A DNA stretch of 64,000 bases from Ignavibacteriota bacterium (GTDB lineage Bacteria; Bacteroidota; Ignavibacteria; UBA10030; UBA6906), in assembly GCA_963801355.1 (NCBI GenBank), contig CAWDEM010000008.1, positions 928,001-992,000 of the forward strand, written 5' to 3'. The position numbers and the translations under genes were made by a program. The notes under the pieces were generated by a model. That model was not told the DNA's origin and made no database searches. It saw nothing but the letters and a program-made list of their open reading frames with translations. Positions 49,901 through 61,250 of this stretch are shown here, in pieces (within the stretch, counting starts at the first letter, position 1; every line of letters begins with the position of its first letter).

Positions 49901-50248
49901 CTTGTGGTTGTAGAACGTCGTGATGGGTTCGAAGATCTCTTCCGCAATTTTGGAAACCACCCGTGCGGTCCGCTCGGCACCTTCATGGTAGTGCACGAGG
50001 AAATGTTCGCTTTCGATGGTGCTCCAGCTGAGTTCCGGATGCGGGAAGTCTTCCTGTGCAGAGGCAGGGGCGAAGGCAAGCAAGAGGGAGATGAAGATGG
50101 CGAGGACATGTACATTCGCATGTGGGATTGCGTCGCCAGAAGAGGGCTCGCAATGACTGGGCACACCCGTATGCAAGGGTGAGATTGCGTCGCCGGAAGA
50201 AGGCTCGCAATGACAGAAGGCCAGTGTCCTTGTCATTCGTGGCTTCAT
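46918..50248 (-). CDS. Gluzincin peptidase + PD40/TolB-like beta-propeller + Omp85-like beta-barrel protein, split by an apparent +1 frameshift near 48225-48260
   Basis: ORF 48065-50248 has a signal peptide, HEFTH..EG and SPDG repeats. ORF 46918-48333 has GGLIGMKGY, DAGNAW and a C-terminal FYFGILFGFDFD. The two ORFs overlap in different frames. Confidence 0.75.
50124..50214. repeat. Two 34-bp REP-like hairpins inside the coding sequence
   Basis: G[G/A]GATTGCGTCGCC[A/G]GAAGA[G/A]GGCTCGCAATGAC at 50124-50157 and 50181-50214; ATTGCG/CGCAAT arms. Confidence 0.85.
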
Positions 50249-53200
50249 CAGTGCACGACGGCGATCTTGATGACGGCGGTGCCGTTCGTCGTAGCGCCCG
50301 TGGCATTCAGGTGGGCGAAGTAGATGCCGCTCTGCACGCCGGTGACGTCCCAGACTGTTTCGTTGTCCCGTCCGCCCCAGCCGGGCGCGTCGAATTCCGT
50401 GACAAGATCCCCCGCGAGGTCATAGATTTTGATATGCACCTGCGCATCTTCGTTGAGGTAGTAGCGTATCTGCGTGGTGCGGTCGTAGACCGGGTTCGGC
50501 CAGTTGTATGCGCGGACTTTCGCGAAGAACTCATTGCTCAGCGGTGCGCCGGTGATTCTCGACATGTCAACTCCAGAGTGCAGGGCATCATGCTGATATT
50601 GTGGCCAGGGATAGAGGCTTGCCTTCGCGTTCCCGGATGTGCGGCCCGTTAACCATGCCGACACCGAGCCGGTCGCTGATGAAGCCACTGCAAGGAACAC
50701 CGAATCACCGGAGGTGAAGATCGCAGCCGTCTGCTTCCCCTGCCCCGCCACAAGCGGAAAGCCCCGCACCGGTTTCCCATGCCCGTCATACGCCACAACC
50801 AGTCCCCCGAGTGAGACGCCGACGACGTCCACACTGCCGTTGCCGTCCACGTCGCCGAGGATCGGGGGGGATGCGAGAGGATGCTCAGCCGGGAGCGTGA
50901 CGGGAAATCCGTCCAGGAGCACGCCGAGGGCGTTATATGCCAGGATCCGGTTGTCGCTGAAGACCAATATGTCGCGTTGCCCATCGCCGTCAAAATCTCC
51001 GATCGCGGGGGGAGCGTCGATCCGCTCGCCGGCCATCACTGGAAATCCGGCCATTGGGGCAAGATCCGCATTGAGAAGGAAGAGCCACCCGTCGCGAGTA
51101 GTCACGGCAAGATGAGGTACAGGAACGCCCGATGAGAAAAACCAGCCGATCGCCGCAGGACCGGCGATGGGATGCCCCAGACGGGTCTTATTCTCTGCAG
51201 GTAGCGGGCCGGCAAGTCGCGGGTCCGCAAAGGTCGCCACGGTACCGTCGCTGCCTGTTACGAGGCCGGCGTACGGGGCGGGAAACGCACTCACTCCTGA
51301 AACCGCTCCATTGGTGTCGGCCAGCAGTCTCAATTCGCCTATGCTGCCGCCGTCGTTGCCGAAGAGGTGTACGCGGCCGCGATCGTCGCCAAAGAGCAGG
51401 AGATTCCCGGAGACGGCGGGTGGAATCGTGCCTGAACCGTTCAAGGTGATCGTGAAGAGTGAATCCGCAAGACTGTCGGCATTGGCGTCACGTGGGGTCA
51501 GGACACGGGCATGCAGCGTTGCTGCGTTATCTCCTATGAGAATTTCTTGAATCCCATCGCCGTTCACATCGGCCAGCAGCGGCCCCGGCACGAACCCCGC
51601 CGCCGGGGTGTTGTCCTGCGCGATGCGTCCGTCACTGAATCCGCCCGGCAGAGCGGGCTTGCCGTCGGGGAGCCAGCCAAACAGCCGGGCGTCCACAGTC
51701 GCCGGATACAGCTGGCTTGCACGGGGTGACGGTACGGTATCTTTGAGCGTTGAAACGACAAGGGCGGGGGGTCGTCCGGCGGAAAGCGGCCCGACGACAA
51801 GCGATGGAGCCGGCAGCCGCTGATTGGTCAACCTGGGGAACCCGGGCAGCACGGTGACTCCGCTATCGCCTATGCTGACCTGCACGGTCATGTACGGTCC
51901 GCGCACGCTGAAATTCTTCATGACGACGTGGCTTTCGCCGTCGTCATTGCTGCGTGCCGGGGGGAACGATGCCGAGGAGAACTCATTCGTGTTCACAGGT
52001 GAATTGCTCCCCGCGTACCAGAAGTCGAGCGGTGTACCGGTCTCGCTGCCGCTCCCCGCAGTGAACGACCCGTAGCTCTGGCCGAGGTCCTGGGATCCGT
52101 CCGCTTCTTCCAGGTCCACGCCGCGGTGTTGCGGATCGGCGTTCACACCGTTCGTTGCAATGTTCGCAGCGATAATCCGTTCGTCGATATGCCACACCAG
52201 CACCCCGCCGTCATAGAATGCCGAATCATCCACACCACCGGGGAGGCTCCAGTCCAGATCTTGCACGTCGGTCACATTGCCCTGCAACGAGGAAACGTCA
52301 AACGCGTTAAAGCCGGCGGTGTCTTGCTTGAACGTGAGCGATGTGGTGACGTTGTTGTACCTCATCGTCACAGTCTGTCCGTTCCTTTGCGCATCCCTGT
52401 TCCGGTTCTCGACCAGGTAGTATTCTCGCGGGCCGATGGGGACTCGATAGATGGTATCGGCAAGCGACACGGCCGGAAGTCGGAGCAGCGTGCTCCCGTT
52501 TTCGACAGTGATGGGGTCGATCCATCCGAGCCAGTACTTTTCCCAGGCGGAGGGCTCCGGCGGGAACACGCCGTTGAAGCTGAAGATTCCCTGGCCGTCC
52601 ATGAGGCCGAATCGTCCGATCGCGGTGGCACCGGTTTTTGTATCGAACAGATCCGGCAGACCAAGGAAGTTTCCCAGCGAAGCACAGAGCAGGCCGTTGA
52701 TGCCAAACTCGAGGAAGACATCTCCGCCGACGCCGGGGATGGAGCGGCCTTCTGTTTCAGGGAGGACCAGCGAGTTTCTCACATAACTGCCGCCTTGCAC
52801 CGGGATGCCGGGAGTCCCCAGTGCTTCCTGGAGCGCCGATTGTCCCAGATACAGCGAAGGAATGTCCCGGTCCGTCGGGTCGTATCCCAGAACGGACACC
52901 AGATCGATGTCCCGTCCGACGCCGGCGTGGAATATCACAAACGCATCATACGCGGCAAATGACGGAACCAGGGAGAGACTGTCGACCTTCCGCCAAGTAT
53001 CCCGTGCCAGCAGGGCCACCGGAGTATTGGGTCCGGTCTTCAAGGGTGAATACGTGCTCATCACATTGGGCAGCGTGACCACAACCGGGATGAGCGTTGA
53101 AGTGACGACAACCTTTCCTTTGGACGCTCTTTGAAAGTAATTGGCAAGAAAAGTCAGGTGATCGGTGAAGTAGGCGGCATTCCTGGGAGGGGCATCCACA

Positions 53201-53442
53201 GGGATGTTGCCCGAGGTGACATGCGATGTATCGAACTGGCCGTTACCTGTTGTCCGCGTGTCCGTGTCCTGCTGAAACTGCACCATGACTGCGAGGACGT
53301 TCACGGTCATTGCCGCGTTGAGCCTGGCGCGGGGGGCGGTTGACGCGTCACCCGCATGGGCGGTGAGAGGATGGTACAGGAGTTGCGCAGGCAGCGCGGC
53401 CGGGATCAGGAGAGCGAGAAGGAGGGTTCGCAGTATTGTCAT
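50248..53442 (-). CDS. T9SS cargo-like protein: M6/InhA-like peptidase domain with degenerate zinc motif, FG-GAP repeats and C-terminal sorting domain
   Basis: Signal peptide; IFHAGVG, LGLPDLFD, GLMD.G, SAWEKYWLGW, EYYLVENR; DVNGDG/DFDGDG repeats; YNWPNP..IKIYDLAG..SGIYF. Confidence 0.8.
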   Translation of the reverse strand: MTILRTLLLALLIPAALPAQLLYHPLTAHAGDASTAPRARLNAAMTVNVLAVMVQFQQDTDTRTTGNGQFDTSHVTSGNIPVDAPPRNAAYFTDHLTFLANYFQRASKGKVVVTSTLIPVVVTLPNVMSTYSPLKTGPNTPVALLARDTWRKVDSLSLVPSFAAYDAFVIFHAGVGRDIDLVSVLGYDPTDRDIPSLYLGQSALQEALGTPGIPVQGGSYVRNSLVLPETEGRSIPGVGGDVFLEFGINGLLCASLGNFLGLPDLFDTKTGATAIGRFGLMDGQGIFSFNGVFPPEPSAWEKYWLGWIDPITVENGSTLLRLPAVSLADTIYRVPIGPREYYLVENRNRDAQRNGQTVTMRYNNVTTSLTFKQDTAGFNAFDVSSLQGNVTDVQDLDWSLPGGVDDSAFYDGGVLVWHIDERIIAANIATNGVNADPQHRGVDLEEADGSQDLGQSYGSFTAGSGSETGTPLDFWYAGSNSPVNTNEFSSASFPPARSNDDGESHVVMKNFSVRGPYMTVQVSIGDSGVTVLPGFPRLTNQRLPAPSLVVGPLSAGRPPALVVSTLKDTVPSPRASQLYPATVDARLFGWLPDGKPALPGGFSDGRIAQDNTPAAGFVPGPLLADVNGDGIQEILIGDNAATLHARVLTPRDANADSLADSLFTITLNGSGTIPPAVSGNLLLFGDDRGRVHLFGNDGGSIGELRLLADTNGAVSGVSAFPAPYAGLVTGSDGTVATFADPRLAGPLPAENKTRLGHPIAGPAAIGWFFSSGVPVPHLAVTTRDGWLFLLNADLAPMAGFPVMAGERIDAPPAIGDFDGDGQRDILVFSDNRILAYNALGVLLDGFPVTLPAEHPLASPPILGDVDGNGSVDVVGVSLGGLVVAYDGHGKPVRGFPLVAGQGKQTAAIFTSGDSVFLAVASSATGSVSAWLTGRTSGNAKASLYPWPQYQHDALHSGVDMSRITGAPLSNEFFAKVRAYNWPNPVYDRTTQIRYYLNEDAQVHIKIYDLAGDLVTEFDAPGWGGRDNETVWDVTGVQSGIYFAHLNATGATTNGTAVIKIAVVH

Positions 53443-53476
53443 AGAGGATCGTTTGTTCGGGGTCTTCGTATGTACC

Positions 53477-53534
53477 AGGGTGTGCTTGCATCGCTCGCCC
53501 CTCCGGAGGGGGGCGACGCAAGCACGATCGCCCT
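53477..53534. repeat. GC-rich intergenic palindrome (REP-like)
   Basis: Arms AGGG/CCCT, GTGCTTGC/GCAAGCAC, TCGCCC/GGGCGA; no U-tract. Confidence 0.6.
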
Positions 53535-53540
53535 TCATTC

Positions 53541-54656
53541 TTACACGCCTCCCCACGCGATCAACAGCGAGAAGCGGATGGTATCGGACAGTGGATGATT
53601 TTCCGAGGCCGAGATATAGCTGAAATCGAAGCCATAGATATCGTACCGGATGCCGGCGCCGAACGTCATGAATTTCCGGTTGCCGAAATCCTTGTGCTCC
53701 TGGAAAAAGCCCAGGCGCAATGCGATCAATCGCGGGGATCCGTACCAGTACTCAGCACCACCGCTGACGATCACTTTTTTCAGGCCGCTTGAGTCGCCCC
53801 ACGCGCTGATCAATGCCTTATAGAAGGGGTCCGAGGTCCCGTCCGCGTGACGGCGCACAAGGAGGCGGCTGAAGTCGACGCCCAGCTGGAGGCTGTTGAA
53901 TTCATCATCCAGCACTTTGTATCCCATGCCGACCCGGAGGTTTGTGGGGAGGGGGTCGGCCTGTGCTGCATCGACGTATGTTACTTTCGGGCCGAGGTTC
54001 GAGAGGTTCACGCCCGCGCTGAACCGCTTGCCGATGTCGCCGAGGAGGGGCACCTCGAGTGCTTCGGGGCGGTACATCATTGCCAGGTCGAAGCTCACCG
54101 TCGAGGCAATCCCGTTCCCCGCTTCCGACTCCGTGCCGATGGGCGAGAGGGCGCTATGGATGAATCGAACGTTGAGGCCCACGCCCAGATCGTCGAACGC
54201 CTTCGTTGCATAGCCGGCGGTGACGGCATACTCGAACGCCTTGAACTTGTCGATGACGGTCGGACCGTCCGAGCCCGTCACGGCGAATTCCCCCAGACTC
54301 AGGTAGGTCACGCTCGCACCGATTGTCCCGCCGATTTCCTCCAGGTCCATCCTGTAATTCAGGTGATCATAGAAGAGATCGGGCAGATTGAACTGCGGCA
54401 GCCAGTTTGCGTGCGTGATACTGACCTCCTGTCCCTTGAGGAAGGCCAGTTGGCCGGGATTCCAGTAGATGGCGGATGCGTCATCCACCCATCCGGTGCC
54501 GGATTCTCCCATCCCGCTCGCCCGGGAATTCGGGGCTATGAGGAGGAACGGAACCGCCGACTCCCCTTGTGCCCGGACTTCGGTCAGGGTCATCACCGAC
54601 CCTGCGACCACAAGGGCGAGCCCAATCGCAGTGCGGAACCGCATGATCTTCTTCAT
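53541..54656 (-). CDS. porV: T9SS shuttle/outer-membrane protein PorV
   Basis: AVPFLLIAPNSRASGMG, IYWNPGQLAF, SNLGPK, PLPTNLRVG; directly downstream of porU. Confidence 0.88.
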   Translation of the reverse strand: MKKIMRFRTAIGLALVVAGSVMTLTEVRAQGESAVPFLLIAPNSRASGMGESGTGWVDDASAIYWNPGQLAFLKGQEVSITHANWLPQFNLPDLFYDHLNYRMDLEEIGGTIGASVTYLSLGEFAVTGSDGPTVIDKFKAFEYAVTAGYATKAFDDLGVGLNVRFIHSALSPIGTESEAGNGIASTVSFDLAMMYRPEALEVPLLGDIGKRFSAGVNLSNLGPKVTYVDAAQADPLPTNLRVGMGYKVLDDEFNSLQLGVDFSRLLVRRHADGTSDPFYKALISAWGDSSGLKKVIVSGGAEYWYGSPRLIALRLGFFQEHKDFGNRKFMTFGAGIRYDIYGFDFSYISASENHPLSDTIRFSLLIAWGGV

Positions 54657-54732
54657 ATGTACTCCCTTCAAGTGAAAAGATGAACGCTGTGCATCACCCA
54701 CCCACACTGCATCTCCACCACACACAACACTC

Positions 54733-57700
54733 TCAACGCACGATTGCAAGTCTGCCGATTGCTTCGCTTGCGAATCGGCCGTCCACCGTGCGCACAATCG
54801 TCTTATACAAATATACGCCATTGGCGACTTTGTCGCCTTCCCGGTCGCGCCCGTCCCAGGGCACACGCACCATCAACTCTCCGACCGATGTCGAGTGCAG
54901 TTCCTGGATCAAGCGGCCCGCGATGGTATAGACCTTGATTTCCACATCCAGGGGAGACTGCTGATTCTGGCGGAACGTGAACTGTGTCTCGTCACCGAAT
55001 GGATTGGGATAATTGAACATATCCGAAATGCTCAGCCGGTCCGAGGATTCAACCATGAAGTACGTTTCAGCCGACGCAGAATTGTTGTACGAATCCCAGG
55101 CGCGTACGCGGATGGTGTTCCGCCCGAGCGGCAGGTCTGAAAGTTGCAGCTGCACTACACCTTCGCGGAAATCATCGCGCTTGCTCGTGTAGTATTCCGT
55201 CAGGTCGAGGCTTTGCACGCTGTTGTTGACCCAGCCCTCGATGCGGTGGCCGATACCCGCGGTGGATGTGTTGATGCCGTTGGCATCGCTGAGGTCGACG
55301 ATAAGCGTGGGGCGTTCCGTGACCACGTCGCCGGGGCGGAAGCTCCGGTTTCCGAGCGCAATGCGGATGGTCGGACCTTCGCCGTCAGAAGCCGCCGTGG
55401 AATCCGTGCCGTTGATGCGTACGGCACTGGTGAAACCGGCACCGTCGTCCTCGGTCCGGCTTACATAGGCCACCAGGCGGCCCCGGCCTGTGGTGTCGGC
55501 GTAGGAGATATCCTTCGGGACAACGAAGCTGGCGCGGAATCCGCCCTCCGCAACCGAGTTCTCCCCTTTGTAAATAGTGGCTCCCGACGACTGATACTGC
55601 CAGTTGTACCCCGGATAGAAGTTGACAATGGTCTGCTGACGGGTGACGTCGTTCACGCGCAGGGTGAGTGTACCGGTGAAGCCCGCGTCGCGGTTGTTGG
55701 CTGCATCGCGCACCGTGCCCGTCACCGTCACGTGGGAAAGCGCCTTCAGGGTGATCGGCGTGGTGCGCGCCGCCCCATCCACGCTGTCCACGGGCTGTCC
55801 GTTGATGCTGTCAATGGACGCGAACCCGCGCGGGAATGCCAGGCGCATGGTCGGATCACCCATGAAGAAGAACTTCTGATCGTTGTCGTAGTTGAAACCC
55901 GCTGCCTTGTAGAGGAAGAGCGCGGTGGCCGGACGCTCCAGAATGATGCGGTTGTACGGATCACGGACGAACATCCGGCGATACGTCCCCTGGTTCAGTG
56001 CGGCATTGCCGCTTGCATACACCTTTCGTGACGCGGAGATCACGCCAGAAGCCCCGCCGTCCGGTTTGTTCATCAGCAGCTCCGACCCGGTGTAGTTCTT
56101 CGGGTCGTCGAACTGTGAGAAATTGCAGGTCGCCAGGAAAAACACCGAGAGTCGATCGGTGTTCGTCAGCTGGGGAATGGACGTGTTGACTTCAAAGACC
56201 AGCTCGTGGGCCCACACTTTCGGGTTTCCGTGACCCGAATAATTCACCATCAACGCGCCCTGGTTGATATTGTCAATGATGTCCTGGGCGGCCCCCGGTT
56301 TACGGCGTCCCTGCGAGGTGTAGACTGTCGGGTATTCGGCGATGTAGATCTTCTTCTTCTCGAACTCTTCCGGGGTGAAGTTACGCGCGAGGGTCTCGGC
56401 ATCATCGCTGTGCTCGGTCCGGTCGCCCACCTCTCCTCCCTCGGACGTCCACGCGTCATCTCCCACAAACAGCATGCGTGTCTTCCAGCTGTCGCGCGCG
56501 CTCTGGTTTTCATAGCGGATGATCTTGTCCACCACCGTGTTCGCTTCGGCCACGGTGCGGGATGATATCCGGCCGCTCACGAGCGAGGGCACCATGCCGG
56601 AACCGAAGGCAGTAAAAAAATCATCCGTTGCATAGCTGTTGACGTCGTGACGCGATTCCGGTGTCTGCCAGGTCGGCACGTACGTCGATTTCGAGCCCAG
56701 GATTCCCTTGTAGTCGTATGACGCCCCGCCGAAGAAGAGCACGAATTTCGGCTGCGGGGTCCAGCCGTTGAACGCATACTTCAAGAAGTCGCGGATTGCG
56801 GTCACATCCGGAACACCACCGCTGAATTCGTTGTAGATGTGCGCGACGTCGATGACCAGGGTCTTCACACCGCCCCCTTCCGGCCGTTCGCGATACGCTT
56901 TCAGCCCGTCAGCGGCAGCCTTGAACTCTGCGCTCGTGACGATGATGAAGTCTGCGCCTTCTGCATACCCGTGGAGATCCTGGTTCGACATTTTCTGAAT
57001 GGCAGCGGGGGTCTTCCACGCGGAAGATCCCGCCGCGCAATATTCGCTGACGGAGCCCCCGGTCAGAGAGGCTCTGAACATATAGGACCCGCCGACGTCG
57101 TTGATCAGTTTCACGTTTGCGTAGTCTGTGACATCAAAGACCATCGGCATTGCGGAGAACTGCTGCAGCCGGAACTCCGCAACGCCGGTGGTGTCGGGGG
57201 ACCGGAAGCGCAGGTAGTTGTTCACACCCCAGAGCATGCGGGGGAAGAGAATCTCGATCCAGTCAATCCATCCCTCCGATGCGTTGCTCGGAGACGAAAA
57301 CGCGATGTTCAGCTGGCTTGTGTTATTGCTGAGCGACGATGTGCCGAGCGCCTGCCCTGTGTATCCCGTGGCATACAGGTAATCGAAGCCGGGAGCCAGG
57401 GCGTACACACCGAGCGTGGTCCCCCCCTCTCTCACGGTGAATTGCGGGGAGGTTCCGTCATGGGCTACAAGGGAGTACCGGTACGTGATAACGTCATTCG
57501 GCACAAGACCGGGAAGGAGGTTGACATAGGTGAACGATCCGCTCGGCCCGCTGAGCGACTGCCCGAGCCAGTCCTTGCCGGAACTCAAGACGTTCACCTT
57601 TTCATCTTCGATGAAGAGCGCATCCACGAACCGTTCGACAACGACGTCGGCGGACGCTGCAAGCGATGGTTGCGATTGCATGCGTTTTCCCGGCGTCCCG

Positions 57701-58827
57701 CCGAACGTCAGCCAGTAGTAATTGACATCGCTGTAGTGGTGGATATAGTGTCTCGGGGCGTGGGCGGCGGCATCGTAAGCAATCCCCCGCGTGCCGCGCC
57801 CGTAGAAAACGACATAGTCTCCGGCGCCCATCTGGCCGTCACTTTCCCCTTCCACGTAGATGGCATTCTCCACAAGGTCGGACGGCCGCGGCGCCGCATT
57901 GTTCTCCGGAACTTCTCTTCCGCCGTTGCCGTAGATCTTGATCGTGCGGGGGTCGACGGACCCGGCATTGATGCCGGCGGCCGCAAGGTACGCTGCGTCG
58001 ATCTTATATATTCCCTCTCCCGTGACGGTCAGGCGGTACCAGTCGCCGGCCGCCAGCACGCTGGGGGATGCTGCGATTTTTGCCGGCGGGGTGGCATCGG
58101 ACTGCAGGCGCCGGAGCATGTCGGGGTTCGCGACCGCGTTCGACAGGAAGGTCACATCGCCGCTCCGGACGGGTTCCGGCGGACCGCCGGCAAAGGTGAC
58201 TTCCACGACGATACGGGAGTATGTGCGCAGAACTCGTGAGCCCGGGTCATATTGCGCGGGCCAGATGTGGACGGCGCCTATCAATGCACTTCTCACATTT
58301 GCAGGAGCGACAAGCTGCGCGATGGATCCCGGAAAGATGCCGGACGGCATGTCCTGGCGTTCCGCATAACCGGCCGGTTCGAGATAGCCGTCGCGTTCTT
58401 TGAGTGATGGCACGGGCAGGACCGCAACGCCCCGCACCTCTTCATAATCCGCGGCCACCACCCGCACCGAATGCGGGCCTGGAGCCGGGAACGCAAGGGG
58501 GATGTGACGCCACGGGAGATCCGGCAAGCCGGCCTCCGTGATGGGTGAAGGTCTGACACCTTCGTCGATGACGACGCGGAGGTAGCTCCTGTCTGCCACC
58601 ATCACCGTGTCGAACCGCATCGACGCCGGACGGAATTCCACGCGCAGTGTGTTTGCTCCGGTGGCGCTCGTGGTGACTTCGGGATCGCGCGGCGCCCGCG
58701 CCTGAACCTCCGCTGCGGATGCCGGACCCGCAAGAGCGGCAAGCAGCGCGGTCGCGCAGGCGAGGACGCACGCCTGGCCACCCGGCGCCATCCCACCCGA
58801 TCGCAAACGGCGGTTCAGCACGGTCAT
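54733..58827 (-). CDS. porU: T9SS sortase PorU (peptidase C25)
   Basis: IYGNGG, IYNEFSGG..D..AIRDF, NYSGHG (His), ATCNF (Cys), MGDP, GINT..GIGH, AWDSYNNS, YPNPF C-terminal domain. Confidence 0.9.
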   Translation of the reverse strand: MTVLNRRLRSGGMAPGGQACVLACATALLAALAGPASAAEVQARAPRDPEVTTSATGANTLRVEFRPASMRFDTVMVADRSYLRVVIDEGVRPSPITEAGLPDLPWRHIPLAFPAPGPHSVRVVAADYEEVRGVAVLPVPSLKERDGYLEPAGYAERQDMPSGIFPGSIAQLVAPANVRSALIGAVHIWPAQYDPGSRVLRTYSRIVVEVTFAGGPPEPVRSGDVTFLSNAVANPDMLRRLQSDATPPAKIAASPSVLAAGDWYRLTVTGEGIYKIDAAYLAAAGINAGSVDPRTIKIYGNGGREVPENNAAPRPSDLVENAIYVEGESDGQMGAGDYVVFYGRGTRGIAYDAAAHAPRHYIHHYSDVNYYWLTFGGTPGKRMQSQPSLAASADVVVERFVDALFIEDEKVNVLSSGKDWLGQSLSGPSGSFTYVNLLPGLVPNDVITYRYSLVAHDGTSPQFTVREGGTTLGVYALAPGFDYLYATGYTGQALGTSSLSNNTSQLNIAFSSPSNASEGWIDWIEILFPRMLWGVNNYLRFRSPDTTGVAEFRLQQFSAMPMVFDVTDYANVKLINDVGGSYMFRASLTGGSVSEYCAAGSSAWKTPAAIQKMSNQDLHGYAEGADFIIVTSAEFKAAADGLKAYRERPEGGGVKTLVIDVAHIYNEFSGGVPDVTAIRDFLKYAFNGWTPQPKFVLFFGGASYDYKGILGSKSTYVPTWQTPESRHDVNSYATDDFFTAFGSGMVPSLVSGRISSRTVAEANTVVDKIIRYENQSARDSWKTRMLFVGDDAWTSEGGEVGDRTEHSDDAETLARNFTPEEFEKKKIYIAEYPTVYTSQGRRKPGAAQDIIDNINQGALMVNYSGHGNPKVWAHELVFEVNTSIPQLTNTDRLSVFFLATCNFSQFDDPKNYTGSELLMNKPDGGASGVISASRKVYASGNAALNQGTYRRMFVRDPYNRIILERPATALFLYKAAGFNYDNDQKFFFMGDPTMRLAFPRGFASIDSINGQPVDSVDGAARTTPITLKALSHVTVTGTVRDAANNRDAGFTGTLTLRVNDVTRQQTIVNFYPGYNWQYQSSGATIYKGENSVAEGGFRASFVVPKDISYADTTGRGRLVAYVSRTEDDGAGFTSAVRINGTDSTAASDGEGPTIRIALGNRSFRPGDVVTERPTLIVDLSDANGINTSTAGIGHRIEGWVNNSVQSLDLTEYYTSKRDDFREGVVQLQLSDLPLGRNTIRVRAWDSYNNSASAETYFMVESSDRLSISDMFNYPNPFGDETQFTFRQNQQSPLDVEIKVYTIAGRLIQELHSTSVGELMVRVPWDGRDREGDKVANGVYLYKTIVRTVDGRFASEAIGRLAIVR

Positions 58828-58844
58828 ACCACCTTCACATAAAC

Positions 58845-58881
58845 AAAAAACCGAACGTTAGAAGACATCCATAACATTCGG
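58845..58881 (-). terminator. Intrinsic terminator within the porU leader
   Basis: CCGAAUGUUA-11 nt loop-UAACGUUCGG plus U6, 17 nt upstream of the porU ATG. Confidence 0.75.
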
Positions 58882-59020
58882 CCGCAGATGGAGTCCATGG
58901 AAGTGCCAGCCTTTGTGATAGACAATGTTCGTTAAAGGGATCCGCTCTCTGCGGTCCGCACCATACAACCTTTAACCAAACACCTCTATAGGCTGATCTC
59001 CACGACTTATGAAAGTTCTC
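58845..59020 (-). ncRNA. Candidate structured leader RNA or sRNA upstream of porU
   Basis: Bounded by a promoter and a terminator; 116-nt rod of 37 bp with 6 G-U pairs at 58892-59007, folded by hand. Confidence 0.55.
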
Positions 59021-59027
59021 GAATACA

Positions 59028-59056
59028 AATATAGAAATCGGCACCCTGAATGTCAA
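59028..59056 (-). promoter_or_regulatory. Near-consensus sigma70 promoter facing porU
   Basis: TTGACA-N17-TATATT(TG). Confidence 0.7.
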
Positions 59057-59169
59057 GCGCTGCTCTGTCCCGGCGCCGTAATTTGATTGTTCGCGCAGAA
59101 TTGTGTACATTTCTCGACAATGTACTGTAACCAAATGCGTAAACCCAATTATCACACCAACTTCGCAGT

Positions 59170-60654
59170 ATGCCTCGTCCCCTAAACGTTCTCTTTCTTT
59201 CGAGTGAAGTGGAGCCTTTCGCCAAGACCGGCGGGCTGGCCGACGTGTCTGGCGCGCTCCCCCAGGTGATCCGGGAAATGGATCACGAAATCCGCATCAT
59301 GATGCCCCGCTACAGCTGCATCAATGAGCGGAAGTCCAGGCTGCACGAAATGATCCGGATGAAAGACGTCATGATTCCGGTCGGGAAACAGCAATACGCC
59401 GCCAACCTGAAATCATCATTCATCGATACGACCCACAGCAAGGTTCAGGTCTACATGCTGGATAATCCGGAGCTGTTCGGCCGGACGGGCCTGTATGTCA
59501 ATCCCGATACCCGCAAGGACTATCCCGACAACGACATCCGGTTCACGTTTTTCTGCCGCGGGGCTCTCGACATGCTCAAGCGCCTCGGCTGGGCTCCCGA
59601 TGTCATTCATTGTAACGACTGGCCGACGGGACTGGTTCCTGCGTTCCTGAAGACGCTCTACGCGAACGACCCCTTTTACAAAGACACGCGCTCCGTCTTC
59701 ACGATCCACAATATGGCGTATCAGGGAGTGTTCCCCCACACTTCATTTGCGCGTACGCTCCTCCCCAAAGCCCTTGACTCCGAACAGGGGGTCATCGCGT
59801 TCGGCAATCTCAATTTTCTGAAGGCAGGGCTGGTGTTCGCCGACGCGATCACCACCGTCAGCGAAAAATACGCGGAGGAGATCCGCTCCTCCGACGAATA
59901 CGGATGCGGCTTGCAGGACATCGCGGAACGCCGCGCGCACGTGCTCCGCGGGATTCTGAACGGCGTGGATTACAGTGTCTGGGATCCTGCGGTGGACGAG
60001 CTGATACCCCACCGGTATGACGTGAAGTCCCTCGATCTCAAGGCGGAAAATAAGCGGGCCTTGCTGCAGCGCATGGGGCTTCCGTACGACGCCGCCGTGC
60101 CCGTCATCGGGATCATCTCCCGTCTTGCAGATCAGAAGGGTTTCGACCTGATCGACATGATCATGGATGACCTCATGAAGATGCATGTGCAGCTGGTGGT
60201 GCTGGGAACCGGAGAAAAAAAGTATCACGATCTCTTCGAGAAGGCCGCGCGGAAGCACCCCGGCAAAGTGGGTGTCGCCCTCCGTTTCGACGACGAGCTT
60301 GCGCATCTCATCGAAGCGGGGAGTGACATGTTCCTCATGCCTTCACGCTACGAACCATGCGGTCTGAATCAGATCTACAGCCTGCGGTACGGCACCGTGC
60401 CGATTGTCCGTGCCACCGGCGGGTTGGATGATACGATCACGGAGTTTCAGCCGTCGACGGGGACCGGCACGGGTTTCAAATTTGCCCGTTATGACAGCGG
60501 TGAGTTGTTGAAGGCGGTGCAGCGGGCTGTTGCAGTCTTCGCCGACACGACCGCCTGGCACAAGTTGATGAAGCACGGCATGGCCCAGGATTTCTCGTGG
60601 GAGACTTCCGCCAAGAAGTATATCCAGGTGTATAGGAGTCTCGCACACAAGTGA
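59170..60654 (+). CDS. glgA: Glycogen synthase
   Basis: PFAKTGGLADV, HCNDW, TIHNMAYQG, RLADQKG, PSRYEPCGL. Confidence 0.95.
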   Translation: MPRPLNVLFLSSEVEPFAKTGGLADVSGALPQVIREMDHEIRIMMPRYSCINERKSRLHEMIRMKDVMIPVGKQQYAANLKSSFIDTTHSKVQVYMLDNPELFGRTGLYVNPDTRKDYPDNDIRFTFFCRGALDMLKRLGWAPDVIHCNDWPTGLVPAFLKTLYANDPFYKDTRSVFTIHNMAYQGVFPHTSFARTLLPKALDSEQGVIAFGNLNFLKAGLVFADAITTVSEKYAEEIRSSDEYGCGLQDIAERRAHVLRGILNGVDYSVWDPAVDELIPHRYDVKSLDLKAENKRALLQRMGLPYDAAVPVIGIISRLADQKGFDLIDMIMDDLMKMHVQLVVLGTGEKKYHDLFEKAARKHPGKVGVALRFDDELAHLIEAGSDMFLMPSRYEPCGLNQIYSLRYGTVPIVRATGGLDDTITEFQPSTGTGTGFKFARYDSGELLKAVQRAVAVFADTTAWHKLMKHGMAQDFSWETSAKKYIQVYRSLAHK

Positions 60655-61250
60655 TAGACGGACGCATCGCGGTTTTTTTCGATCGTGACGGGACGCTGAT
60701 TGAGGATGTGGGATATCTACGAACACCCGATGAAGTCCGTCTGATCCCGGGTGCGGCTGCAGCGGTCCGTCTGTTGAATGAGCGGCGGATCTTTACCTGC
60801 GTGGTGTCCAATCAATCCGGTGTGGCCCGCGGATTCTATACCGAAGCGGATCTGGTGCCGATTCATGACCGGCTGCAGAGAGAACTTGCCTCGGGGGGGG
60901 CACATCTCGACCGCATCTATTATTGTCCGCACCACCTGACGGAGGGGCGCCCACCGTACAACATCGACTGCACGTGCCGCAAGCCACGCACCGGCATGGT
61001 GCAACGGGCCGCTTCCGAAGTGCCGATCGCACTGGAGAAGTCGTTCGTCGTCGGCGACAAGGTGTCCGACATCGAACTCGGCAAGGCCGTCGGCGCGCAG
61101 AGCATCCTGGTGCTCACAGGTTTTGGCCGCCCATCGCTGGTGGAGTCTCGCGAGAACGGGATTTTCCCCGACTATGTCGCTCCCACCGTGACCGAAGCGG
61201 TTGCGTTCATCATGCAACATCTTGAAGGAGTATCTCATCCTCATGCATAA
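60651..61250 (+). CDS. gmhB: D-glycero-D-manno-heptose-1,7-bisphosphate phosphatase-like HAD enzyme
   Basis: DRDGT, SNQSGVARG, YCPHH..CTCRKP..GM, VGDKVSD. Confidence 0.8.
   Translation: MIDGRIAVFFDRDGTLIEDVGYLRTPDEVRLIPGAAAAVRLLNERRIFTCVVSNQSGVARGFYTEADLVPIHDRLQRELASGGAHLDRIYYCPHHLTEGRPPYNIDCTCRKPRTGMVQRAASEVPIALEKSFVVGDKVSDIELGKAVGAQSILVLTGFGRPSLVESRENGIFPDYVAPTVTEAVAFIMQHLEGVSHPHA

Follow-up and report, generated by a model that had tools for sequence, protein, structure and literature searches.

A conserved leader RNA heads porU-porV in Ignavibacteria and porV in a KSB1-like phylum and is a candidate attenuator of T9SS genes

The window analyzed here, a stretch of 64,000 nucleotides from the genome of an Ignavibacteriota bacterium, contains an intergenic region between glgA and porU in which a first-pass annotation, made from the letters alone, had seen a candidate structured RNA or attenuator of T9SS genes. 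Does this region encode a conserved RNA, and could such an RNA control the genes that follow it? The annotation had placed the RNA at the head of a porU-porV operon, and Pfam assignments put porU, then porV, directly downstream. The first gene 3' of the leader RNA, porU (54733..58827, minus strand), is a 1364-aa ORF for a Peptidase_C25 with its propeptide (PF01364, Peptidase_C25, 4.7e-89; PF08126, 2.9e-20). The porV ORF (PF19572, 2.1e-36) is listed at 53541..54866 on the same strand, and its true start is probably later than the listed one. The gene after porV encodes an FG-GAP protein that carries a C-terminal sorting domain of the T9SS, and the divergent gene 5' of the RNA encodes a glycogen/starch synthase. 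Within the 4.8-Mb genome the intergenic region occurs only once, which rules out a repeat or mobile element.

The leader RNA has its own promoter on the minus strand, found at the positions given by the first-pass annotation: a -35 hexamer TTGACA (59051..59056) and a -10 hexamer TATATT (59028..59033) with a 17-nt spacer between them. A promoter scan of 58600-59400 returned this as the sole promoter-like site, with a score of 11/12. A transcription start near 59021 is predicted. The same TTGACA-N-TATATT arrangement stands at the equivalent place, with no more than two mismatches, in 84/90 homologous loci, all 84 of them with a 17-nt spacer. On the explanation favored here, a strong promoter of the sigma-70 type transcribes the leader RNA. 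The U-run of the terminator and the first in-frame start codon of the long ORF that follows are separated by a median of 18 nt, and by no more than 60 nt in 48/54 loci. Because this distance is short and the promoter is so widely kept, porU and porV appear to be transcribed from the promoter of the leader RNA, through its terminator. Four metatranscriptome contigs of a relative, of 90-99% likeness, lie on porU and glgA coding sequence only.

Read on the minus strand, the transcript contains a 116-nt rod (59007-58892) of six helices (4+6+7+5+7+8 = 37 bp, with 6 G-U pairs), and its coordinates, helices and pairs all hold as first described. Unconstrained MFE folding of 58828-59030(-) recovered the rod and the terminator at -64.8 kcal/mol (z = -2.78; 2/200 shuffles as good), versus a worse fold of -44.3 kcal/mol (z = -1.99) for the plus strand. 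The element is a structured RNA on the minus strand, as the first-pass annotation had it.

All parts of the rod named here lie on that strand. The 5' strand GGAG of the basal helix (58998..59001) pairs with UUCC (58902-58899), and the pairs of this GGAG/UUCC helix (8-170, 9-169, 10-168 and 11-167) are formed in 18-21 of 22 sequences. The following segment, CAGCC-UAUAGAG (58984..58995), comprises the basal-helix 5' strand X and a conserved GCCUAUAG box. In the MFE fold X (CAGCC) pairs with Y, the GGCUG at 58911-58907; the box is near-invariant in alignments A1, A3 and A4, and its partner strand varies. The core-helix 5' strand S1, GUUAAAGGUU (58967..58976), is the most conserved element of the family, with columns that are invariant or near-invariant in A3 and A4. 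Between S1 and its partner lies an apical domain (58939..58966) composed of GUAUGGUGCGGA, a CCGC-AGAGA-GCGG hairpin and AUC, which is variable in the family: the two core strands are 24-81 nt apart (median 54), and the apical sequence is unconserved. The core-helix 3' strand S2, CCUUUAAC (58931..58938), is a candidate switching strand whose sequence complements S1 and also, in most lineages, the terminator 5' half and loop. The remainder of the rod 3' strand (58892..58930) includes Y and UUCC. Downstream of the rod, Z (CGGCC, 58880..58884) is a copy of the 5' strand X and shares with the terminator stem the two C residues that open it. No K-turn or loop-E pattern was found by eye in the internal loop.

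The intrinsic terminator (58845..58881, minus strand) consists of CCGAAUGUUA (58881-58872), an 11-nt loop, UAACGUUCGG (58860-58851) and U6 (58850-58845). The description of a 10-bp stem with U6, ending 17 nt 5' of the porU ATG at 58827, is exact on the minus-strand reading, and a GC-containing hairpin with a U-run thus stands between the promoter and the start codon. A simple terminator scan with a loop limit of 8 did not list this terminator because its 11-nt loop exceeds that limit. The 17-nt spacer that follows (58828..58844, minus strand) carries a Shine-Dalgarno-like AAGGUGG before the porU start.

The first-pass annotation had recognized no known riboswitch, T-box, SRP or 6S RNA in the element, and Rfam searches agree. 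With Rfam 15 at E<=10, cmscan of positions 57000-61000 of the window gave no match inside 58828-59169, and at E<=1 six diverse members gave no match on the RNA. SRP RNA is ruled out, as the RF00169 match of the genome lies elsewhere (contig C8:391572-391669, 66.2 bits). The 6S RNA model RF00013 found no match in the whole of the organism's own genome at E<=10. That a genome without any Rfam 6S match carries a rod-like RNA of ~175 nt could be taken to mean that this is the 6S RNA of the organism, and the near-palindromic DNA of the terminator arms could be taken for a DNA-level operator, with inverted repeats bound by a transcription factor. We consider this pair of readings extremely improbable. 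The MFE fold has small internal loops only and lacks a central bubble, which, with the missing RF00013 match, speaks against 6S RNA; the element is confined to lineages with this gene arrangement and is duplicated along with porU. A terminator loop whose length differs widely among members is a poor fit to an operator of fixed spacing, and the G-U pairs and compensatory changes fit RNA. The leader RNA belongs to a conserved family for which Rfam 15 has no entry.

The extent of this family was traced from the intergenic region outward. BLAST against 61 relatives detected conserved blocks well beyond the genus. In an alignment of 23 glgA-porU spacers the promoter is almost invariant, the 5' strand is conserved (GGAG, N3, CAGCC-UAUAGAG and UGUUCGGUUAAAGGUU), the apical part varies in both length and sequence, and the 3' strand and the terminator sequence GCCGAAUGUUAU...AUAACGUUCGGUUUUUU are conserved. 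A covariance model built from 22 of these 23 spacers (R1) matched 61/68 genomes of the window's family, 63/151 of its order, 11/151 of its class (including 2/7 in a family of another order) and 10/151 of its phylum, the last all within the window's own order. Each genome had one match, save two genomes with two each. On the reverse strand of the same loci R1 scored ~10-21 bits, versus 28-151 bits on the forward strand. Weak R1 matches were accepted only in a porU/porV context because terminator-only chance matches reach ~33 bits.

A scan of genome contigs with the terminator pattern returned mostly unrelated terminators; with membership judged by full-length R1 or by R2, a covariance model of the 5' domain only, 11 family members were present among the 80 loci listed of 119 stretches. 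Full-length R1 matches among those listed included MAGs labelled KSB1, 'Cytophagia', 'Bacteroidota' and 'Deferribacteres'. We infer that these four MAGs represent a second, KSB1-like phylum, since they share one GTDB phylum whose even sample differs from that of the window's phylum. In this second phylum R2 matched at least 11-12 of 101 genomes, a lower bound because the strict filters missed the known carriers G320 and G322. The leader RNA of this family would be about 165-230 nt long.

Linkage of the leader RNA to porU or porV is strict in both phyla. At 49 of the 50 loci L039-L088, the gene immediately 3' of the RNA, read in the same direction, encodes a PorU homologue, and at the fiftieth the contig runs out; glgA is missing upstream at six loci of this set. 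Each of the two genomes with two porU paralogs has a separate RNA copy for each paralog, the second copy being without glgA. In the second phylum, porV lies directly downstream of the RNA at L183, L144, L117 and L182, and an FG-GAP/CTD protein follows porV at L183 and L117, the loci that reach far enough. At the further second-phylum loci L238-L249, porV is present in 12/12 and lies directly downstream of the RNA, which has its CCGAAUG...CAUUCGG-U-run hairpin, in 11/12.

Comparison of family members showed that the rod core and the terminator covary beyond shuffled controls. In a set of 34 diverse sequences, pairing in the core helix plus terminator stands at 92.7%, compared with 88.0% in shuffles, and 11 pairs are changed on both sides, compared with 5.0; 0/500 shuffles reached the observed value on any of the five measures, and slid controls were 30-48% paired. 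The core helix alone is 90.2% paired in these sequences. For the full structure as first described, in 22 same-family homologues, the corresponding values are 80.6% versus 76.4% paired and 20 versus 12.5 pairs changed on both sides, with slid controls at 34-50%; 0/500 shuffles reached the observed values on four of five measures, and 10/500 did so on the fifth (further pair types). Two helices are weakest in the fixed alignment: UCAGCCU/AGGCUGG, whose register shifts outside the genus and which therefore reaches only 59.9% pairing, and AUAGA/UCUAU, which is formed in just part of the window's family. From A1, RNAalifold recovered the core helix and the terminator alone; for the basal helices the columns were set by hand on account of a register shift.

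The architecture itself is shared. MFE folds of 42 diverse members all consist of a rod, a linker and a terminator, on a common plan of basal helix, internal loop with the GCCUAUAG box, core helix GUUAAAGGUU/AACCUUUAAC, variable apical domain, linker and terminator. The basal helix covaries between lineages (GGAG/CUCC versus GGUG/CACC in one second-phylum member; CGCCUAUAC/GUAUGGGCG), and in a swap test cognate basal strands paired at -13.0 kcal/mol versus -9.0 kcal/mol for non-cognate strands (p ~5e-5). The terminator stem is 94.9% paired in the 34 diverse sequences, with changes on both sides in 9/11 pairs. Its hairpin is present in the MFE fold of 57/59 members, a U-run of at least 5 nt in 59/66, and the base CCGAAUG/C(A/G)UUCGG is kept in sequence across both phyla.

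Two side observations concern this terminator. The CCGAAUG of its base persists in L068 and L087, where the U of this motif has no partner, and termination alone does not explain that. At L066 the hairpin is kept and the U-run is degenerate.

A near-consensus promoter in 84/90 loci, a strong terminator in the MFE fold of 57/59 RNAs and a very stable rod are also what would be expected of an independent, abundant trans-acting sRNA, or of the RNA of an RNP, with porU-porV transcribed from a constant, unregulated leak through the terminator. Such a product would fit two further features: the core-helix strands and terminator base are kept in sequence and not just in pairing across two phyla, as protein recognition would require, and L066 retains its hairpin despite the degenerate U-run. 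We nevertheless think this explanation, raised in the first-pass annotation as a ~175-nt sRNA with read-through, unlikely. The RNA is never found away from porU/porV, be it in the loci of L039-L088 that can be judged (49/49), at the paralog loci (4/4) or at the second-phylum loci (11/12), and it occurs as a single copy per porU/porV locus. Its 5' strand has no long antisense target in its own genome, and the apparently co-evolving complementarity between the rod 3' strand and the terminator 5' half, described below, would have no role.

The conserved 5' strand also raises the question of translation. In leader-peptide attenuation, a ribosome moving from an AUA, AUC or AUU after AGGAG to the UAA within GUUAAAGG would cover the 5' strand and free the antiterminator. 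An AGGAG does lie 6-8 nt 5' of AU(A/C/U), and the core-motif UAA falls in frame with it in 41/60 unique 5' regions, compared with the one third expected. By a count of rows by eye, these in-frame cases fall in two lineages in which the stretch hardly varies in length, and by a grouping made by hand just 3/13 members of the other Ignavibacteria families are in frame. Within the window's family, close relatives are out of frame (L021, L045, L047, L057, L090 and L094), most members have no canonical start codon, and helix geometry explains the fixed spacing equally well. Leader-peptide attenuation is thus very improbable. As a general feature of the leader the mini-ORF was rejected, its reading frame not being kept across lineages.

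The first-pass annotation had proposed an alternative fold in which apical CCGCAGA (58954-58948) pairs with UCUGCGG (58888-58882). These segments are complementary in the window; the pairing, however, is not conserved among relatives. Read by eye from the rows of A1, one pair is lost in the closest relative, whose intergenic region is 91% identical; the pairing is absent in two other same-genus rows and shrinks to 4 bp in the fifth. In four of the five same-genus A1 sequences it is therefore not kept, and beyond the genus the apical domain bears no resemblance to that of the leader described here.

A different competing pairing emerged from the terminator itself, whose 5' half and loop resemble the 5' strand of the rod (for example ...CCGAAUG-GUUAAAGGCGA in L246, compared with GUUCGUUAAAGG). 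Home-made swap tests, in which any register was allowed, were applied to two strand pairs. The first sets S2 against S3, the 16 nt running from the terminator 5' half into its loop; the second sets Y, the basal-helix 3' strand, against Z, taken here as the first 5 nt of the terminator together with the 10 nt ahead of it. Over 25 cluster representatives, cognate S2:S3 pairing was -9.69 kcal/mol versus -6.77 kcal/mol for non-cognate pairing, a value that 0/20000 permutations reached. With the window's family set aside (n=15), the values were -11.31 versus -7.60 kcal/mol (p ~5e-5), with the cognate strand the best partner in 7/15; within the family (n=10) the signal was weak, at -7.25 versus -6.03 kcal/mol (p=0.044). 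Tested against 300 shuffles each, S2:S3 reached p<=0.05 in 26/58 unique RNAs. In the window's own RNA S2:S3 is no better than shuffles (z=-0.71, p=0.24), and the signal is weak in its genus. In a fixed register on A3, S2:S3 hardly exceeded shuffles, with 67.8% paired versus 66.5% (75/500 shuffles as high); the number of changes on both sides alone was distinct, at 18 versus 11.9 (10/500 shuffles).

Cognate Y:Z pairing likewise exceeded non-cognate pairing, both over the 25 representatives (-8.17 versus -6.38 kcal/mol, p ~1e-4) and within the window's family (-12.25 versus -10.69 kcal/mol, p = 0.016). In 31/31 sequences of that family, 1-5 terminator-stem bases are drawn into the best Y:Z duplex; in some members, such as L084, the Y:Z hairpin lies off the terminator. 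In the window's RNA, X:Y is worth -20.7 kcal/mol versus -9.4 kcal/mol for Y:Z, and only Y:Z remains there of the competing fold. The control strand pairs gave no signal, with p=0.84 (S1:S3), p=0.54 (X:Z) and p=0.07 (S2 versus the terminator 3' half). Judging by how the segments follow one another, the two pairings nest within a single hairpin, Y:Z on the inside and S2:S3 on the outside; therefore, Z-S3 can be regarded as a downstream copy of X-S1. Collectively, the free-register swap tests suggest that the alternative complementarity of the rod 3' strand with this downstream copy co-evolves.

The two folds are far from equal in stability. The rod and terminator fold is ~20-30 kcal/mol more stable than folds in which the 5' strand is kept free by a constraint that leaves it unpaired, and with the 5' strand blocked in this way the terminator is still present in the MFE fold of 37/59 RNAs. 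Before its own partner exists, the terminator 5' half pairs upstream in 58/59 RNAs with the 5' strand blocked; this constraint test discriminates poorly, because it is also positive in 41/59 with the strand free.

Dominance of the rod-plus-terminator fold, a long and near-perfect double-stranded rod and the fact that no effector was found would all suit a constitutive 5' structure without a sensor, whether an element for stability or processing, such as a substrate of RNase III, or a fixed 'valve' behind a strong promoter that keeps porU-porV low. An element of this kind would not keep GGAG, GCCUAUAG and GUUAAAGGUU in sequence across two phyla, nor would it keep an apparently co-evolving downstream copy of its 5' strand, and we judge it improbable.

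Regulation of termination fits these observations best. The leader RNA is probably a terminator/antiterminator attenuator of the porU-porV operon that answers to a putative effector. The idea of an attenuator of T9SS genes, already raised in the first-pass annotation, thus stands as the best fit to the linkage, the covariation and the co-evolving pairing, and the apical fold proposed along with it is not supported. In the default OFF fold, GGAG, GCCUAUAG and GUUAAAGGUU of the 5' strand would pair with the 3' strand to form the long rod; the downstream hairpin and U-run would then form the terminator 17 nt before porU, and an RNA of ~175 nt would be released. Switching would require that the conserved 5' strand be held from pairing while the variable apical domain is transcribed. 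In the ON fold, the 3' strand of the rod would instead pair with the downstream copy of the 5' strand, located before and inside the terminator 5' half and loop. Since this pairing would occupy the terminator 5' half, the terminator would be blocked and RNA polymerase would enter porU. This model presupposes a working terminator, formation of the ON fold in cells and an effector that chooses between the folds. The double duty of S2, Y and the terminator 5' half would explain why helices are conserved over loops.

Given the large stability advantage of the rod over the ON fold, a putative factor (a protein, an RNA or a ligand) that holds the conserved 5' strand would be the likeliest trigger; alternatively, a putative factor might stabilize the rod. 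The gene context points to no particular ligand, and none of the results favors the cyclic dinucleotides or pGpG named in the first-pass annotation. PorU and PorV are secreted or outer-membrane proteins, which makes autoregulation by either of them unlikely. A wider proposal is put forward tentatively, as falling somewhat short of probable: the leader may belong to a new class of sensing leaders, either an orphan riboswitch or the target of an RNA-binding regulator, that makes production of the T9SS attachment complex, with PorU, PorV and the FG-GAP/CTD protein, depend on a cellular signal through strand displacement, with a terminator that holds a copy of the sensor 5' strand. Such a class would either be older than the split between Ignavibacteria and the KSB1-like phylum or have moved with porV.

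For research on the T9SS, this family offers a new and directly testable regulatory input, an RNA tied to a single operon in two phyla. For research on riboswitches, it provides a clean orphan candidate in which conserved helices have two partners each and the terminator holds a copy of the sensor strand. Genome annotation would gain as well, since porU and porV in carrier genomes are probably without a promoter of their own.

The closest mechanistic parallels are the three-hairpin attenuators of Bacillus, such as those of the pyr operon with PyrR and the trp leader with TRAP, in which an upstream structure, an antiterminator and a terminator share strands. Like these, the leader RNA would be a strand-sharing leader in which the decision falls during transcription, and the controlled genes start right after the terminator. 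In contrast to them, it has no sequence or family relation to either system, its genes encode parts of a secretion apparatus and not biosynthetic enzymes, and its upstream structure is a very stable rod of >100 nt. Because of that stability, the default here is probably termination.

Among riboswitches, the HMP-PP (thiS) riboswitch is reported to have its aptamer embedded in the terminator (PMC6478431). The leader RNA resembles such platforms in being a cis-acting 5' leader, with mutually exclusive folds on the model proposed above, and in having a conserved terminator whose sequence is informative beyond its pairing. It differs from riboswitches in that it has no Rfam riboswitch match, in that its most conserved bases lie in Watson-Crick helices and not in junctions, and in that it regulates, on the model proposed above, one locus per genome. 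With 6S RNA (RF00013) it shares a rod-like shape, a similar length and a strong promoter; unlike 6S RNA, it has no model match and no central bubble, is linked to porU/porV and is duplicated with porU.

Known regulation of T9SS component genes is reported to run through PorY-PorX-SigP (PMC4800418), a cascade of proteins that works at promoters in Porphyromonas. In the present case, met in Ignavibacteria and a KSB1-like phylum, a sigma-70-like promoter is followed by an RNA element. Neither an RNA leader of porU/porV nor RNA-level control of the T9SS turned up in searches of the open full-text literature. The RNA family and its association with these genes appear to be new, and the built-in copy of a strand is unusual; the manner of working proposed for it is that of known attenuators and riboswitch expression platforms.

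The terminator of the leader RNA, a hairpin with the stem base CCGAAUG/C(A/G)UUCGG common to both phyla, was compared among relatives. In two loci of family f8 (L068 and L087), CCGAAUG was kept at the terminator base even though its U opposes C (CCGAAUGAGAA...UUCUCCUUCGG). Therefore, sequence conservation at this site exceeds the needs of terminator pairing. An anchor search did not find the CCGAAUG hairpin in loci L067 (genome G080) and L107 (genome G167) of genus g20. Locus L067 carried a run of nine U directly 3' of the rod, and in this genus the rod and U-run may themselves serve as the terminator.

Variation was also observed within single genomes. Genomes G172 and G173 each encode two porU paralogs, with a separate leader RNA copy for each paralog (loci L109-L112). 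The second copy had a poorer promoter and a divergent rod sequence, in which CUGC/GCAG or CAA(A)C/GUUG replaced CCGC/GUGG.

In the minimum free energy fold of the window's leader RNA, the 5' leader ACUUUCAUA (59008-59016, minus strand) was paired with UGUGAAGGU (58831-58839, minus strand), which surrounds the porU Shine-Dalgarno sequence. The CUUUC of the 5' leader was kept among sequences of the same genus. Judged within the genus, this predicted pairing may add a translational layer.

On the opposite strand, a sigma-70-like promoter of the divergent glycogen synthase gene was located at 59083-59111 (plus strand), with a -35-side box TTGATT (59083-59088) and a second box TACATT (59106-59111) separated by a 17-nt spacer. 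The glycogen synthase ATG lies at 59170 (plus strand), approximately 58 nt downstream of this promoter. Both boxes were conserved columns in an alignment of 23 glgA-porU intergenic spacers. This promoter was absent from a simple promoter scan because its score was only 8/12.

Comparison with known RNA families revealed no match to the Rfam 6S RNA model (RF00013) at E<=10 across the whole of the window's own genome, which is 100% complete. A 6S RNA of this lineage, if present, escapes the current RF00013 model. In one second-phylum genome, a sub-threshold match to Rfam DUF805b was detected at L246:1950-1988 (minus strand; 20.7 bits versus a gathering score of 35.6, E=0.08). This match, which precedes the leader RNA by approximately 330 nt, is probably due to chance.

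Downstream of porV, domain content identified an FG-GAP protein with a T9SS C-terminal sorting domain (window 50248-53556, minus strand). Proteins of this type also follow porV in the second phylum (L183:4428-7511 and L117:4696-7839), with sizes of approximately 1030-1100 amino acids across the three loci. The operon may thus far extend to this protein as a third conserved component, and that it plays a PorZ-like role is only a guess.
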